IMG/VR virus record: IMGVR_UViG_2684623059_000002
DNA from: a virus
Taxonomy: Duplodnaviria > Heunggongvirae > Uroviricota > Caudoviricetes
Length of the DNA: 45,162 bases
Strand: one strand, 5' to 3'
The translations under genes were made by a program, and so were the position numbers. The notes beneath the pieces were generated by a model, which was not told the origin of the DNA, searched no databases, and saw only the letters and a program-made list of their open reading frames with translations. Of the stretch, positions 5,345 to 21,676 are shown in pieces; the first letter of the stretch is position 1; the number at the start of each line of letters is the position of its first letter.

Positions 5345-5849
5345 ACAGGTTTGTGAGGCTCTGGATGCCTGGGTATGCCGACCAGGAATGACACAGGAGC
5401 AGGCGACGATATTAATCACGGAAGCATTCTGGGCTCTGAAAGAACGCCCGAACATCGATGTTCAACGCGTCACGTTTAATGATGGCGAGGTTGATCAACG
5501 GGCGTTGGGCGTTAACCGGGTGAAGATATTCGAACGCTGGAAAGCTATCGACACCAGGGATAAGCGGGAAAAATTCACGGCGCTGATTCCGGCAATTATG
5601 GAGGCTATCCGGATCAGCGATTTCAGGTTGTATTGTGAAATTACTGACGGAAAAAGCATTACGTACATGATCGCCGGGTTAAACAAAGAATATGGCGATG
5701 TGGTGGAGTCCGGTCTGCTTTTGGCAGATCCCGCTGTTGTGGAGCGTGAGACTGACGAGCTTATAGAAAAAGCTATTGCTTTCAAGCATGCGTATCGTCA
5801 GCAATATCAACAAAAAGCCGGATGGAATTATGAGTCTTCTTTTTGCTGA
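5328..5849 (+). CDS. Early-region hypothetical protein (173 aa); YdaT-like position, possible regulator
   Basis: ORF translationally coupled to dicC; position equals ydaT/cII slot of Rac/Qin-type prophages; family assignment not verified. Confidence 0.5.
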   Translation: MKITPEQVCEALDAWVCRPGMTQEQATILITEAFWALKERPNIDVQRVTFNDGEVDQRALGVNRVKIFERWKAIDTRDKREKFTALIPAIMEAIRISDFRLYCEITDGKSITYMIAGLNKEYGDVVESGLLLADPAVVERETDELIEKAIAFKHAYRQQYQQKAGWNYESSFC

Positions 5850-6783
5850 ACGCCCACTGGTTATTAACACGCAGCTGGCGATGAAAATTGGCCTGAATGA
5901 AGCCATTGTACTGCAGCAGCTGCATTACTGGTTGAGAGATACTAATTCCGGCATGGAATGTAACGGGGTTCGCTGGATTTATAACACAACAGAACAATGG
6001 CTGGAACAGTTCCCGTTCTGGTCAGAGTCAACGTTAAAACGCGCATTTGCAAGTCTGAAAACGCTGGGGCTTTTGCGTTGCGAAAAGCTCAACAAATCAA
6101 AGCGTGACATGACTAATTTTTACACGATTAATTACGAGAGTGAGCTTTTAGATGGTGGCAAAGTGAGCGAATCCATCAGGTCAAAATGCGCCGCTCCATC
6201 AGGTCAAAATGACACGATGGAAGAGGTCAAAATGGCACGCTCCATTGGTTCAAAACGACCCAATGTCATCGGGTCAAAATGGCCTGATGATCTTACAGAG
6301 AATACAACAGAGAATAAAAACACTTCTCGTCCGGAAGCTTCGCAACCGGACCCGCAGACGGCTGAACAGGATTTTTTAATCCGACACCCTGATGCGGTTG
6401 TGTTCAGTGCGAAAAAACGCCAGTGGGGAAGTCAGGAAGATTTGGCGTGCGCACAGTGGATCTGGGGACGAATCGTGAGTCTTTACGAGCAGGCGGCCAG
6501 CGATGATGGCGAGATCACGAGACCGAAAGAACCCAACTGGACAGCATGGGCCAATGACGTGCGCACAATGCGGATGCTGGATGGCAGAACTCACAGACAA
6601 ATTTGCGAAATGTTTGGGCGGGTACAGCGGGATCCATTCTGGGTAAAAAACATCATGAGTCCGTCAAAGCTCCGCGAAAAATGGGACGAACTGGTCATCC
6701 GCCTGGGGCGTTCATCTGTACAGCGTTGTGTGAATCATATTTCTGAACCGGACACCGAAATTCCGCCGGGGTTCAGGGGGTAA
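5830..6783 (+). CDS. Replication initiation protein (phage O-like / replisome organiser)
   Basis: ORF preceding the DnaC-like loader; N-terminal HTH-like region; start chosen at MSLLFAERP. Confidence 0.65.
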   Translation: MSLLFAERPLVINTQLAMKIGLNEAIVLQQLHYWLRDTNSGMECNGVRWIYNTTEQWLEQFPFWSESTLKRAFASLKTLGLLRCEKLNKSKRDMTNFYTINYESELLDGGKVSESIRSKCAAPSGQNDTMEEVKMARSIGSKRPNVIGSKWPDDLTENTTENKNTSRPEASQPDPQTAEQDFLIRHPDAVVFSAKKRQWGSQEDLACAQWIWGRIVSLYEQAASDDGEITRPKEPNWTAWANDVRTMRMLDGRTHRQICEMFGRVQRDPFWVKNIMSPSKLREKWDELVIRLGRSSVQRCVNHISEPDTEIPPGFRG

Positions 6784-17992: not shown

Positions 17993-18304
17993 ATGAAAAT
18001 TTATATTGCCGGGCCAATGACGGGATATGAGAACTTTAATCGTGACGCCTTTAATAAAGAGGCAGATCGTTTGTCACGACATGGTCACTCTGTCTTGAAT
18101 CCAGCCACTTTGCCTAATGGTCTGACACAACGTGAATACATGGATATTTGCTTTGCAATGCTTCGTTGTGCTGATGCTATTTTGATGCTTCCTGGCTGGA
18201 AAGCGTCTGCTGGAGCAACTGCTGAGTATCATTACGCATACAAGATGGAGATGCCGGTATTCACTACTCTGAATTACCCGCCAGCTTGTTCCTCTGCAGT
18301 ATAA
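17993..18304 (+). CDS. DUF4406-like protein (nucleoside 2-deoxyribosyltransferase-like fold), moron after the lysis cassette
   Basis: MKIYIAGPMTGYENFNRDAF...ADAILMLPGWKASAGA pattern matches the DUF4406 signature as recalled. Confidence 0.55.
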   Translation: MKIYIAGPMTGYENFNRDAFNKEADRLSRHGHSVLNPATLPNGLTQREYMDICFAMLRCADAILMLPGWKASAGATAEYHYAYKMEMPVFTTLNYPPACSSAV

Positions 18305-18547: not shown

Positions 18548-18952
18548 CTATATTAATGGCTTGTTGTTCTCAACATCTTCCATGTATAAAAGTGTATCAT
18601 CGACGGAGTAGTAGCGTCGTTTGTTATCGTTGACATCGGTAACCCATCGGAATACGCCTGCATTAGCCAGAGTTGTGGTAAATTCGCGGAATGTAGACTT
18701 TCCTGAATTATGAATTCGGGCAGCTTTTTTTACTTGCTCCGGATTCTTGATTATGCTGACTTTTAATAACTCCCTGTTGCCTCTGATTAATAAAGCTTCA
18801 GCATTTACAGTAATAGCTCTGATGTTATCAGTAGCCAGATAGTAAATATAATAAGCAATATTCTGGCGTTTCAGTCCTGAGTAAAACTGTGAAAAGTTAT
18901 GCTCCTTTCTTACTTGTTCAAACATTTCCCGGAGAACATCAACCTGGTCCAT
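18548..18952 (-). CDS. Hypothetical protein, YbcV/DUF1398-like moron on the opposite strand
   Basis: 134-aa ORF on minus strand between lysis genes and cos, same position and orientation as ybcV in DLP12. Confidence 0.55.
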   Translation of the reverse strand: MDQVDVLREMFEQVRKEHNFSQFYSGLKRQNIAYYIYYLATDNIRAITVNAEALLIRGNRELLKVSIIKNPEQVKKAARIHNSGKSTFREFTTTLANAGVFRWVTDVNDNKRRYYSVDDTLLYMEDVENNKPLI

Positions 18953-19071
18953 CAGCGTTATAACCTCTTGTTTGTTTTTACACGGTTAGTTTGCATGATT
19001 AGTTATATCACATCAATCTGGTCAGAGCACACATGAGCGCCGGGTCCTTTCCGGTGATCCGGTAGTTTACG

Positions 19072-19083
19072 GGGCGGCGACCT
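19072..19083 (+). other. cosN cohesive-end site (lambda-type 12-nt end GGGCGGCGACCT)
   Basis: Exact lambda cohesive end sequence followed by CGCGGGTTTTCGCTATTTATGAAAATTTTCCGG, matching the lambda left end. Confidence 0.9.
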
Positions 19084-19120
19084 CGCGGGTTTTCGCTATT
19101 TATGAAAATTTTCCGGGATC

Positions 19121-19219
19121 CATGTCCGGTTTCTCTGCAAGTTAACTATATGAAAAATATAAAAACAGGCTGTCCGTGAACCGGACATGTGCAAAAAACG
19201 GACATGTAAACCGGACATG
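19121..19219 (+). repeat. cosB-like terminase small-subunit binding repeats (CCGGACATG x3 direct plus one inverted) with AT-rich IHF-like spacer
   Basis: Motif at 19181-19189, 19198-19206, 19211-19219 and inverted at 19121-19129, between cosN and nu1. Confidence 0.7.
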
Positions 19220-19266
19220 ACCGGTTTTGTGCTGATTGTGAGGTAAGAGTTTTTGCGAGGTGAGGA

Positions 19267-19776
19267 GTGGCTACGCAGACTGAAGTTGCCAGGCATTTGA
19301 GTCTGACCGATCGCCAGCTTCGCAGATTGCAGAAATTACCGGGTGCCCCGGTCTCGAATAAGCGAGGGCAACTGGATCTGGATGCCTGGCGCGATTTTTA
19401 CATATCGTATCTGAGGAGAAGTAAAAACGATGTGCCTGATGGCGATAGCGAAGACGACTATGAGGAAAAATTGCTTATTGCCAGATGGGAACTGACAGCA
19501 GAACAGGCTGTTACACAGCAGTTAAAAAATGAGGTGTCAAAAGGAAAACTTATTGACACCGGGTTCTGTATTTTTGCCCTCAGTAAGCTGGCAATGGCGT
19601 TATCCAGTACGCTTGATTCCATCCCTTTATCCATGCAACGACAGTTTCCTGATTTAACACCGCGCCATCTTGACCATCTGAAAACCCTTATTGCGAAGGG
19701 GGCAAATCAGTGTGCGCGGGCGGGGGATAAATTACCGGATTTACTCGATGAATATATCAGAGCAACAACTGAATAA
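19267..19776 (+). CDS. nu1: Terminase small subunit (lambda Nu1 homologue)
   Basis: C-terminal region ...FCIFALSKLAMALSSTLDSIPLSMQRQFPDLTPRHLDHLK... parallels lambda Nu1. Confidence 0.9.
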   Translation: MATQTEVARHLSLTDRQLRRLQKLPGAPVSNKRGQLDLDAWRDFYISYLRRSKNDVPDGDSEDDYEEKLLIARWELTAEQAVTQQLKNEVSKGKLIDTGFCIFALSKLAMALSSTLDSIPLSMQRQFPDLTPRHLDHLKTLIAKGANQCARAGDKLPDLLDEYIRATTE

Positions 19777-21676
19777 TATGATGAGTGCTGTCACAACAGC
19801 ATTACAGCCCCTGATAAGGGCATTGCCGGTGACGCCAGTTGAATGGGCTGATCAAAATTATTATCTGCCGAAAGAATCTTCATATGGTGAGGGAGAATGG
19901 AAAACGCTGCCATTCCAGAGCGCCATTATGAACTGTATGGGTAACGACCAGGTTCGCACGGTTAACCTGATTAAATCTGCCCGTGTTGGCTATACAAAGA
20001 TGTTGCTGGGGGTGGTCGGGTATTTTATTGAGCATAAATCCCGAAACAGTCTGCTTTTTCAGCCCACGGATTCTGCCGCTGAAGATTTTATGAAGTCTCA
20101 CGTGGAGGCGACGATTAGGGACGTGCCATGCCTGAAAGACCTTTCCCCATGGCTGGGTCGTAAACATCGTGATAATACCCTCACGCTGAAACGCTTTTCA
20201 TCGGGTGTGGGCTTCTGGTGCCTGGGCGGCGCTGCCGCCAAAAACTACCGTGAAAAATCCGTGGACGTGGTCTGCTATGACGAGCTTTCCTCGTTCGAAC
20301 CGGATGTTGAAAAAGAGGGCTCGCCAACCCTGCTGGGGGATAAGCGTATTGAGGGCTCTGTATGGCCAAAATCCATTCGCGGCTCGACGCCTAAAATCAA
20401 AGGCACCTGTCAGATCGAAAAAGCGGCTAACGAGTCGGCGCATTTCATGCGTTTTTATGTGCCCTGCCCGCACTGTGGGGAGGCGCAGTATCTGAAATTT
20501 GGCGATGAGTCCACGCCTTTTGGGCTTAAATGGGAGAAGGACAGTCCCGAAAGCGTTTTCTACCTCTGTGAACATCATGGCTGCGTGATCCATCAGTCTG
20601 AACTGGACCAGAGCAACGGGCGGTGGATCTGTGAAAACACGGGCATGTGGACCCGTGACGGTCTGACGTTTTTCAGCGCTGCGGGTAATGAAATTCCGCC
20701 GCCGCGCTCCATCACTTTCCATATCTGGACGGCGTACAGTCCGTTCACCACCTGGGTACAGATTGTCTATGACTGGCTGGATGCACTGAAAGATCCCAAC
20801 GGCCTGAAAACTTTTGTGAACACCACGCTGGGCGAGACCTGGGAAGAGGCCGTGGGCGAAAAACTCGATCACCAGGTTCTGATGGATAAGGTTGTTCATT
20901 ACACGGCGGCGGTGCCTGCCCGGGTGGTTTATCTGACGGCGGGCATTGACTCGCAGCGAAACCGTTTTGAGATGTATGTCTGGGGATGGGCTCCGGGAGA
21001 GGAGGCCTTTCTGGTGGATAAAATTATCATTATGGGGCGTCCCGATGAGGAAGAGACGCTATTACGTGTGGATGCGGCGATCAACAAAAAATACCGCCAT
21101 GCAGACGGAACCGAAATGACCATTTCCCGTGTCTGCTGGGACATCGGGGGGATCGATGGCGAAATCGTTTATCAGAGGTCAAAAAAACACGGTGTTTTCC
21201 GGGTGCTGCCGGTAAAAGGCGCATCTGTCTATGGCAAGCCGGTGATCACCATGCCAAAAAACCGCAATCAGCGGGGCGTGTATCTGTGTGAAGTGGGGAC
21301 GGACACCGCAAAAGAAATTCTCTATGCCCGTATGAAAGCCGATCCCACGCCTGCGGATGAAGCCACGTCGTATGCCATCCGTTTTCCTGATGATCCGGAG
21401 ATTTTTTCGCAGACAGAAGCGCAGCAACTGGTGGCGGAAGAGCTTGTGGAGAAGTGGGAAAAAGGAAAGATGCGTCTGCTGTGGGATAACAAAAAGCGGC
21501 GTAACGAAGCACTGGATTGCCTGGTGTATGCCTACGCGGCATTACGTGTGTCCGTGCAACGCTGGCAGCTTGATCTGGCTGTACTGGCAAAATCCCGGGA
21601 AGAAGAGACGACCCGGCCAACCCTTAAAGAACTGGCAGCGAAGCTGTCCGGAGGAGTGAATGGTTACAGTCGCTGA
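19748..21676 (+). CDS. A: Terminase large subunit (lambda gpA homologue)
   Basis: MNISEQQLNN...VEWADQNYYLPKESSYGEGEWKTLPFQSAIM collinear with lambda A. Confidence 0.95.
   Translation: MNISEQQLNNMMSAVTTALQPLIRALPVTPVEWADQNYYLPKESSYGEGEWKTLPFQSAIMNCMGNDQVRTVNLIKSARVGYTKMLLGVVGYFIEHKSRNSLLFQPTDSAAEDFMKSHVEATIRDVPCLKDLSPWLGRKHRDNTLTLKRFSSGVGFWCLGGAAAKNYREKSVDVVCYDELSSFEPDVEKEGSPTLLGDKRIEGSVWPKSIRGSTPKIKGTCQIEKAANESAHFMRFYVPCPHCGEAQYLKFGDESTPFGLKWEKDSPESVFYLCEHHGCVIHQSELDQSNGRWICENTGMWTRDGLTFFSAAGNEIPPPRSITFHIWTAYSPFTTWVQIVYDWLDALKDPNGLKTFVNTTLGETWEEAVGEKLDHQVLMDKVVHYTAAVPARVVYLTAGIDSQRNRFEMYVWGWAPGEEAFLVDKIIIMGRPDEEETLLRVDAAINKKYRHADGTEMTISRVCWDIGGIDGEIVYQRSKKHGVFRVLPVKGASVYGKPVITMPKNRNQRGVYLCEVGTDTAKEILYARMKADPTPADEATSYAIRFPDDPEIFSQTEAQQLVAEELVEKWEKGKMRLLWDNKKRRNEALDCLVYAYAALRVSVQRWQLDLAVLAKSREEETTRPTLKELAAKLSGGVNGYSR

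Follow-up and report, generated by a model that had tools for sequence, protein, structure and literature searches.

A probable lambda-type cohesive-end site with a divergent cosB and small-terminase DNA-binding domain in a lambdoid prophage

INTRODUCTION

Where would the virion chromosome of a lambdoid prophage begin and end, and which terminase would have to recognise its packaging site, when only half of that site is lambda's? This question is raised by IMG/VR record IMGVR_UViG_2684623059_000002, a 45,162-nucleotide stretch of DNA from a caudovirus (referred to here, at its full length, as the window), which is a lambdoid prophage with prophage gene order. A preliminary description of this DNA had placed a "lambda-identical" cos site with cosB repeats at 19060-19260, upstream of the small-terminase gene, and had taken it for the packaging origin. 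In the open-access literature, the documented lambda-like packaging specificities are those of lambda, 21, and N15; few have been studied, and more diversity is expected (PMC4669245).

Here, we report that positions 19042 to 19226 very probably form a complete cohesive-end site of the lambda type, judged from their sequence and that of their relatives, with its elements in the order cosQ-cosN-I2-cosB. The architecture and the likely mechanism appear to be lambda's; only the recognition sequence and the protein domain that would read it seem to differ.

RESULTS

cosQ, cosN, and I2 match lambda, and the match ends at bp 45

To locate the elements of the site, we aligned the window to a lambda-derived record in which the 12-mer of the cohesive end is annotated as the cos site. 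In this alignment, which had been proposed as a check with the preliminary description, cosQ, cosN, and lambda bp 1-45 match at the correct spacing. The cosQ heptamer GGGTCCT (19042-19048, plus strand) starts 30 nt before the top-strand nick position, which is the lambda spacing; its position and its role as the packaging termination signal are described in PMC4669245. The 22-bp nicking site cosN (19067-19088, plus strand) is identical to lambda's. It includes the predicted 12-nt 5' cohesive end GGGCGGCGACCT at 19072-19083 (plus strand), which is present as had been claimed and occurs a single time in the 45-kb window. The I2 spacer (19089-19120, plus strand) corresponds to approximately lambda bp 18-49 and contains an A4T4 tract. 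Lambda bp 1-45 (19072-19116) are identical in the window, the AT-rich I2 segment included. In lambda, I2 is essential and its bp 30-35 are critical (PMC4856287); the AT tract TATTTATGAAAATTTT is kept in relatives of the window.

When we searched phage genomes by BLAST, lambda and its relatives matched only 19041-19116, at 96% identity. Within this match, three substitutions relative to lambda lie in the interval between cosQ and cosN, at -10, -9, and -6 (19062, 19063, and 19066). From lambda bp 46 on, the window sequence is unrelated to lambda. The range first given for the site was thus essentially right, with cosQ sitting 12-18 bp further left, and the label "lambda-identical" is true only for cosQ, cosN, and I2, the half read by the large terminase subunit (TerL): it fails for cosB, which departs from lambda at bp 46.

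On the left, lambda and all relatives first resemble the window at 19041, 1 bp left of cosQ; this boundary is evidently a natural recombination junction and marks how far the conserved cos extends to the left. At this point cosQ is abutted by a leftward DUF1398 gene with its upstream DNA (18548-19041). No complete E. coli RefSeq genome shares the DUF1398/cosQ junction exactly.

Each of the features that mark a lambda-like cos was found: a 12-nt end, cosQ at lambda spacing, and an AT-rich I2 between cosN and the first cosB repeat, R3. Because cosQ, cosN, and I2 are essentially lambda's, we infer that TerL would introduce staggered nicks leaving GGGCGGCGACCT. Nicked on the top strand between 19071 and 19072, the virion chromosome would have its left end at 19072 and its right end at 19071.

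Among relatives, cosQ is nearly invariant. We found GGGTCCT in 40 of 41 distinct 272-bp cos segments from E. coli-type loci and GGGTTCT in the other one. GGGTCC is likewise present in 203/203 retained loci encoding a small terminase subunit (TerS) of the MATQ type described below, a figure that is no independent test of conservation, since retention itself required an upstream GGGTCC.

A cluster of 11-bp repeats stands in place of the lambda cosB repeats

The preliminary description had counted three direct and one inverted copies of a repeat to the right of the cohesive end. Two of the direct copies and the inverted one are exact, while the third direct copy, ACGGACATG (19198-19206), matches at 8/9 positions. 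The true repeat unit is the 11-mer CATGTCCGGTT/AACCGGACATG, of which the window holds three exact and two one-mismatch copies; all matches with zero or one mismatch in the 45 kb are confined to 106 bp (19121-19226). For the 9-mer CCGGACATG, the window contains three exact copies only, at 19181-19189 (plus), 19211-19219 (plus), and 19121-19129 (minus), and all four exact copies of the 8-mer CGGACATG are inside 19121-19219. Chance does not account for such a cluster: at least four copies of a given 8-mer per 100 bp have a probability of approximately 7e-9 (Bonferroni corrected), and none of 200 shuffles contained a comparable cluster of any 8-mer.

Reading rightward from I2, the first copy is an R3-equivalent candidate TerS site, CATGTCCGGTT, exact and on the plus strand (19121-19131; cos bp 50-60, counted from the first base of the cohesive end). 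An R2-equivalent candidate site, AACCGGACATG, is exact and inverted with respect to R3 (19179-19189, minus strand; cos bp 108-118). It is followed by a degenerate extra copy, AAACGGACATG, with a 10/11 match (19196-19206, minus strand; cos bp 125-135), hereafter the middle copy. The last element is an R1-like composite on both strands, AACCGGACATGACCGGTT (19209-19226; cos bp 138-155), in which an exact minus-strand copy (19209-19219; bp 138-148) overlaps a one-mismatch plus-strand copy, CATGACCGGTT (19216-19226; bp 145-155). An imperfect inverted element, CTGTCCGTG (19170-19178), was considered as a fifth site and rejected; it drifts freely in relatives.

The cosB layout nearly coincides with that of R3, I1, and R2 in lambda and phage 21

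We next compared these coordinates with those of lambda and of phage 21, the latter as annotated in M81255. R3 (plus) occupies bp 53-64 in both phages and 50-60 in the window; I1, the site for integration host factor (IHF), bp 74-86 in both and 72-84 in the window; and R2 (minus), bp 109-120 in lambda, 108-119 in phage 21, and 108-118 in the window. R1 (plus) lies at 154-165 and 153-164 in the two phages, respectively, and at 145-155, with one mismatch, in the window. The TerS gene starts at bp 190, 189, and 196, in the same order. R3, I1, and R2 therefore agree with both phages within approximately 3 bp, and the forward R1-like copy is approximately 9 bp nearer cosN. Two extra minus-strand copies (bp 125-135 and 138-148) add to the tripartite R3-I1-R2-R1 pattern. 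That pattern itself, known from lambda, 21, and Monarch, in which R3 and an oppositely oriented R2 flank an IHF site and are accompanied by R1, is complete in the sequence of the window.

The putative I1 equivalent, TTTCATATAGTTA (19143-19155, minus strand; cos bp 72-84), matches the IHF consensus WATCAANNNNTTR at 11/13 positions. The proven I1 of lambda likewise scores 11/13, and in three related loci (L098, L100, and L102) the sequence at this position matches the IHF consensus perfectly.

R3 and R2 are conserved among close relatives, and the middle copy is not

A first scan of IMG/VR yielded 80 loci with a near-identical TerS, and a scan with one genome per species yielded 12. From 77 IMG/VR loci with a 99%-identical TerS, we obtained 23 distinct cos sequences over bp 1-200. 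R3 is invariant in 23/23 of these variants. R2 is exact in 20/23 and carries single substitutions in the other three, and the R1 composite is kept in 18/23 (13 exact and 5 differing at the first AA only). The middle copy (19196-19206) has its CGG core in only 2/23, the others reading CAG, TAG, TGG, and similar, and it is absent from other genera. Judging by this drift, it is probably under no selection; because it is the least conserved among relatives, the third of the direct repeats originally described is the copy least likely to be functional.

One variant (L097:1440 and L203:540, from the same IMG/VR contig region) is missing exactly the 30 bp that separate R2 from the third copy. This deletion resembles the product of recombination between the direct repeats, and it leaves R3, I1, and one minus-strand box fused to the R1 composite.

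The downstream small terminase is a divergent member of the Nu1 family

The gene immediately to the right, at 19267-19776 (plus strand), has a GTG start and encodes TerS, of 169 aa. By homology, TerS would consist of an N-terminal MATQ-type winged helix-turn-helix and a C-terminal Nu1-like part for assembly and TerL binding. Standard searches recover only the latter: Pfam Phage_Nu1 (PF07471) covers residues 49-150 only (1e-18), and BLASTP finds 46% identity to lambda Nu1 over residues 73-164 only. The N-terminal approximately 55 residues, which begin MATQTEVARHLSLTDRQLRRLQKLPGAP, include the recognition helix DRQLRRLQ (residues 15-22), and BLASTP detects no similarity of this DNA-binding domain to Nu1.

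Profile comparisons reach further. The family phrog_57, which contains lambda Nu1, 21 gp1, N15 gp1, and Gifsy-1 TerS, matches TerS end to end, and the first 56 aa alone match at 1.9e-10. By hhalign, residues 5-167 align to the lambda-type TerS with a probability of 99.9, and the register through the helix-turn-helix pairs residue i of the window protein with lambda residue i+1. Residues 1-56 were modelled with AlphaFold (predicted local distance difference test score of 86), which places helices at 4-10, 15-22, and 38-55. The best fold matches of this model are MerR-like winged helices, among them the lambda Nu1 domain (1J9I; template-modeling [TM] score, 0.67), RppC (6HLK; TM score, 0.76), and the RppC-TerS complex (6HN7). 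The search was restricted to the N-terminal domain because long helices dominated the fold search with the full-length model. A TerS sequence search of the PDB returned only noise. We had also considered that the N-terminal domain might be foreign and unrelated to Nu1, which the PHROG and hhalign results reject. The TerS N-terminal domain is a divergent homologue of the Nu1 domain, related at the profile and fold level only, and the protein combines a Nu1-homologous C-terminal region with an N-terminal MerR-like winged helix, as expected of the Nu1 family.

TerL, of the gpA type, is encoded at 19748-21676 (plus strand; 642 aa, ATPase plus endonuclease), with Pfam matches to GpA_ATPase (3.5e-56) and GpA_nuclease (9.2e-71). 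The end of the TerS gene and the start of the TerL gene share 29 nt, as they do in relatives. The phages PhiR12_1 to PhiR12_5, whose deposited host is E. coli K-12 or C, encode a 98.8%-identical TerS and have the same R3, R2, and R1; their deposited records start elsewhere than at cos. Pseudomonas phage LPPA33, which encodes a full-length homologue from nt 165, was examined for defined ends and set aside: the ends of the record are apparent assembly artefacts, and its cos is internal.

A 66-aa open reading frame on the minus strand (19096-19296) runs across cosB. Its equivalent in PhiR12_1 is annotated "hypothetical protein," and it is probably a spurious gene call.

The repeat covaries with the TerS recognition helix while its spacing stays fixed

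We then turned to more distant loci, taken from contigs encoding divergent homologues and from IMG/VR scans seeded with these. TerS homologues of 60-80% identity came from Klebsiella, other E. coli, Salmonella, Citrobacter, and Enterobacter, and more distant MATQ-type loci were included. In every enterobacterial locus, cosQ and R3 are 82-84 bp apart. Where R2 is present, the spacing from R3 to the inverted R2 is 56 bp except in two loci, one with 57 bp and the other with its first matching copy 86 bp away; across the five enterobacterial genera this spacing is fixed even though the intervening sequence has diverged. R1 appears to be optional, since many enterobacterial loci carry R3, I1, and R2 only.

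The sequence of the box changes together with the helix. Helices of the form ...RQLRRLQK pair with boxes (C/G)ATGTCCGGTT, and helices with D or N at residue 20 pair with CA(T/C)TTCCGGTT. We compiled 26 distinct helix/R3 pairs. Where TerS residue 20 is Arg, the box is xxxG-TCCGG in 5/5, including the distant L122 (approximately 38% identity); where it is any other residue, the box is xxxT-TCCGG in 21/21. The association is complete: by mutual information, residue 20 accounts for the whole entropy of the base 5' of TCCGG. Fisher's test on the 5/0/0/21 table gives 1.5e-5, that is, 1/C(26,5), a nominal value uncorrected for phylogeny.

The same pairing distinguishes lambda from phage 21. In the hhalign register, R20 of the window lies opposite N21 of lambda and R21 of phage 21, and bp 56 of R3, a specificity determinant by the genetics of Feiss and colleagues (PMC4669245), is T in lambda and G in phage 21. 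With N21/T in one phage and R21/G in the other, the pairing of Arg with G and Asn with T recurs outside the MATQ-type family. In addition, the near-invariant R16 and R19 match the invariant TCCGGTT half of the box, in line with how the Nu1 helix is reported to be oriented on R3 (PMC9026076). We propose that R16 and R19 would read the invariant TCCGG core and that residue 20, Arg here, would read the G 5' of it. Binding of the R boxes by the TerS winged-helix domain thus has strong, though indirect, support in the helix/box covariation and in the homology and fold of the domain.

MATQ-type TerS proteins are also encoded in Azospirillum, Rhodospirillaceae, gammaproteobacterial metagenome-assembled genomes, and environmental viral contigs (L010, L014-L017, L121-L132, and L239-L247). 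Upstream of these genes are a cosQ-like GGGTCCT, an AT-rich tract, and tandem TTCCG(G/C)TTCCG boxes, without an IHF site or an inverted R2. This shared order suggests that the lambda-type cos layout reaches far beyond enterobacteria in a simpler form.

Weighing the packaging-origin reading

Together, these results support the reading of this locus as the packaging origin, with cosB upstream of the small terminase. Lambda's cosQ, cosN, and I2 are present at the correct spacing. They and the repeats lie directly upstream of genes for a Nu1-family TerS and a gpA-type TerL. The repeats fall close to the coordinates of R3, I1, and R2 in lambda and 21, and the repeat covaries with the TerS recognition helix while the spacing is fixed. 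Phages PhiR12_1 to PhiR12_5, with their 98.8%-identical TerS and shared R boxes, speak for activity of this class of site.

A number of observations count against this reading. R3 is 3 bp nearer cosN than it is in lambda, where changing the R3-cosN spacing is harmful (PMC4856287). Matches of 11/13 to the IHF consensus occur approximately 8 times per kb in the window, so that a match of this quality is statistically unremarkable alone and the assignment of I1 rests on its position and on the relatives. The covariation represents approximately 2-3 independent evolutionary events (about two in the MATQ-type family) rather than 26. The Foldseek E-values for the N-terminal domain of TerS are not significant, owing to the small size of this 56-residue domain. 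Two further points concern the DNA to the left of cosN. In most E. coli-type relatives an AT-rich palindrome lies left of cosQ, where the window has the DUF1398 upstream region instead, and position -6 is T in the window and G in 40/41 distinct cos segments of E. coli-type loci. This unusual T and the missing palindrome make the activity of the window's own copy less certain than that of its class.

These last two points also bear on the alternative that survives best, namely, that the cos is of the right type and is an inactive relic in a defective prophage, never defining virion ends. Many EHEC-type (enterohemorrhagic E. coli-type) lambdoid prophages are defective. The T at -6, the end of similarity 1 bp left of cosQ through an upstream replacement carrying the DUF1398 gene, and a junction found in exactly this form in no complete E. 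coli RefSeq genome all speak for a relic. We nevertheless consider a relic unlikely. The cosN, cosQ, I2, R3, R2, and R1 elements are all intact, and the open reading frames for TerS, TerL, W, portal, protease, capsid, and tail are full length. Position -6 is outside the 22-bp cosN and, to our knowledge, nothing left of cosQ is required in lambda.

A second alternative assigns the site the packaging specificity of lambda or of phage 21, so that it would be recognised by lambda Nu1 or 21 gp1. This possibility has to be judged against what the window shares with each known system. With lambda it shares the 12-nt end, the 22-bp cosN, cosQ, and I2, the order and coordinates (within 3 bp) of R3 (plus), I1, and R2 (minus), the C-terminal part of TerS (46% identical), and the adjoining Nu1-family TerS and gpA-type TerL genes. 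Phage 21 has a nearly identical cosQ and cosN, with one substitution in each, and the same tripartite cosB. The R box of the window shares C-x-T-x-TCC-G with lambda CGTTTCCG and CATGTC with 21 CATGTCGG; the latter half includes the G equivalent to bp 56, and phage 21 also has Arg at the homologous helix position. Cross-recognition is conceivable, as the N15 terminase packages lambda DNA despite its divergent recognition system (PMC4669245).

Several differences stand against it. The window contains CATGTCCGGTT where lambda has CGTTTCCKTTCT and phage 21 has CATGTCGGnCCT, the latter with another 3' half, and it has zero copies of either of those boxes. Extra minus-strand copies between R2 and R1 occur in the window and not in lambda. 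No box of the lambda form CGTTTCC(G/T)TTCT is present, and neither is the lambda helix pair Q20/E24; of the phage 21 combination of CATGTCGGnCCT boxes with the gp1 helix pair E20/S24, only the CATGTC half is common. By hhalign, the specificity positions are R19 and K23 in the window, against Q20 and E24 in lambda and E20 and S24 in phage 21. The DNA-binding domain of phage 21 gp1 is lambda-like (MKVNKKRLAEIF...), whereas that of the window is of the MATQ type and lacks BLAST-level similarity to Nu1. Lambda and 21 differ less from each other, and yet they discriminate more than 1,000-fold (PMC4669245). No megablast DNA match of the TerS and TerL genes to phage 21 was among the matches listed; the match to its head and tail genes lies downstream. 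We regard lambda or phage 21 specificity as very improbable. Because neither cosB nor the TerS DNA-binding domain is lambda's, calling the site a lambda cos must not imply lambda packaging specificity.

In sequence, the window cosB is unlike that of lambda, 21, N15, or Gifsy-1. Like the window, N15/Monarch and Gifsy-1 combine a lambda-like 12-nt end with cosQ and I2, and their TerS also belongs to phrog_57; in all of them a conserved TerL-read half is joined to a divergent module of cosB and TerS DNA-binding domain. In N15, cosB is simple: only one R3 is critical, its sequence is unlike CATGTCCGGTT, and the helix differs. The Gifsy-1 boxes are AGATCC(G/T)TTC, again unlike CATGTCCGGTT, and its cohesive end differs at three positions. 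The cos of EcCICFT073, a phage-inducible chromosomal island of E. coli, likewise combines a lambda-like cosQ and cosN with a non-lambda cosB and is recognised by a winged-helix protein with the Nu1 fold; RppC is among the best fold matches to the window TerS. Islands of this type lack terminase genes and redirect the helper TerS via Rpp, whereas the window cosB is followed by TerS and TerL genes of its own and by a complete head and tail operon, and we conclude that the window site is not an island-type cos. Homologue names such as "prophage Qin Nu1-like" had suggested the DLP12/Qin type of K-12, which we rejected: nohD, nohA, and their cos are lambda-type.

A third alternative, likewise very improbable, is that the CATGTCCGGTT repeats serve a DNA-binding protein other than TerS (for example, one that controls transcription of the late or head operon) or fold into a terminator or hairpin: two weak terminator-like hairpins do overlap the repeats, but the count of terminator-like matches is within the shuffled background, one of the hairpins uses a nonconserved CTGTCCG stretch, a promoter-like site was looked for in cosB and none was found, and the repeat sits at the R3 and R2 coordinates of lambda and 21 and covaries specifically with the TerS recognition helix across genera. 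We rejected promoter and terminator readings on the same grounds, with no promoter-like site and hairpins at background level.

DISCUSSION

If the locus is the packaging origin, packaging could proceed much as it does in lambda. TerL would recognise the lambda-identical cosN, I2, and cosQ. IHF would bend I1 so that R3 and R2 face each other, and by analogy a dimer of TerS N-terminal winged-helix domains would dock on R3 and R2, with R1 as an accessory site. The docked TerS would position TerL on cosN for staggered nicking, which would leave the 12-nt overhang starting at 19072. Packaging would then run rightward into the head genes and terminate at the next cosQ and cosN. DNA specificity would come from the TerS recognition helix, DRQLRRLQ.

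Whether the CATGTCCGGTT box and the MATQ-type TerS amount to a further lambda-like specificity, free of cross-reaction with lambda, 21, and N15, is to our minds an evenly balanced proposition. It would include a rule of one residue for one base, in which Arg at helix residue 20 (lambda 21) goes with G 5' of TCC and Asn or Asp goes with T. Such a rule, together with the 56-bp spacing of R3 and R2, bears on how a TerS dimer might dock on IHF-bent DNA. The accepted picture of cos function would be unchanged by it and would be extended to a common, unstudied variant.

The variant is widespread. We found the module in 1155/5426 complete E. coli genomes (approximately 21%), with a median of two and a maximum of four copies per genome; its TerS is annotated there merely as "terminase small subunit." In the open-access literature, a search for the motif CATGTCCGG/CCGGACATG returned only papers on p53 response elements, and a search on cosB, cosQ, and O157 found no description of the CATGTCCGGTT box or of the MATQ TerS type, subscription papers being outside this search. 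Because approximately one-fifth of E. coli genomes carry the module, often in two to four copies and on effector-bearing prophages, cross-packaging is possible. If the proposed specificity is true, coresident prophages, defective ones included, could be packaged by each other's terminase, which would offer a concrete route for virulence cargo between strains. For the prophage of the window, which carries effector genes, the site determines both where the ends of the virion chromosome would lie and by which small terminase it has to be recognised.

Other features of the prophage

The early region of the window resembles that of the EHEC "PPompW" prophages, and the head and tail genes are approximately 91% identical to those of phage 21. 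Upstream of cos lie a lysozyme gene, Rz, a DUF4406 gene, and the leftward DUF1398 gene. The DUF4406 gene (17993-18304), between Rz and the DUF1398 gene, encodes a nucleoside 2-deoxyribosyltransferase-like protein; this region is rich in morons.

Type III effector genes follow the tail fibre gene. They encode NleG (40650-41240), a SopA-like E3 ligase with pentapeptide repeats (41290-43662), and an NleC-like protease, Peptidase_M85 (43916-44908). Given this cargo, the host is probably an attaching/effacing E. coli or a relative.

Four tandem tRNA genes (13305-13614; Met-CAT, Lys-TTT, Thr-TGT, and Gly-TCC) lie just 3' of the Q antiterminator gene (12399-13094). Between these and the lysis genes, 13938-15854 encodes a 638-aa protein with DUF1737, SASA (sialate O-acetylesterase), and DUF6645 domains, which occupies the position of the NanS-p esterases in EHEC prophages.

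The only other 8-mer cluster in the window is at 6179-6281, within an open reading frame for an O-like replication initiator (5776-6783). It consists of five spaced copies of GGTCAAAATG, one reading GGTTCAAAACG, which are probably iterons of the replication origin.

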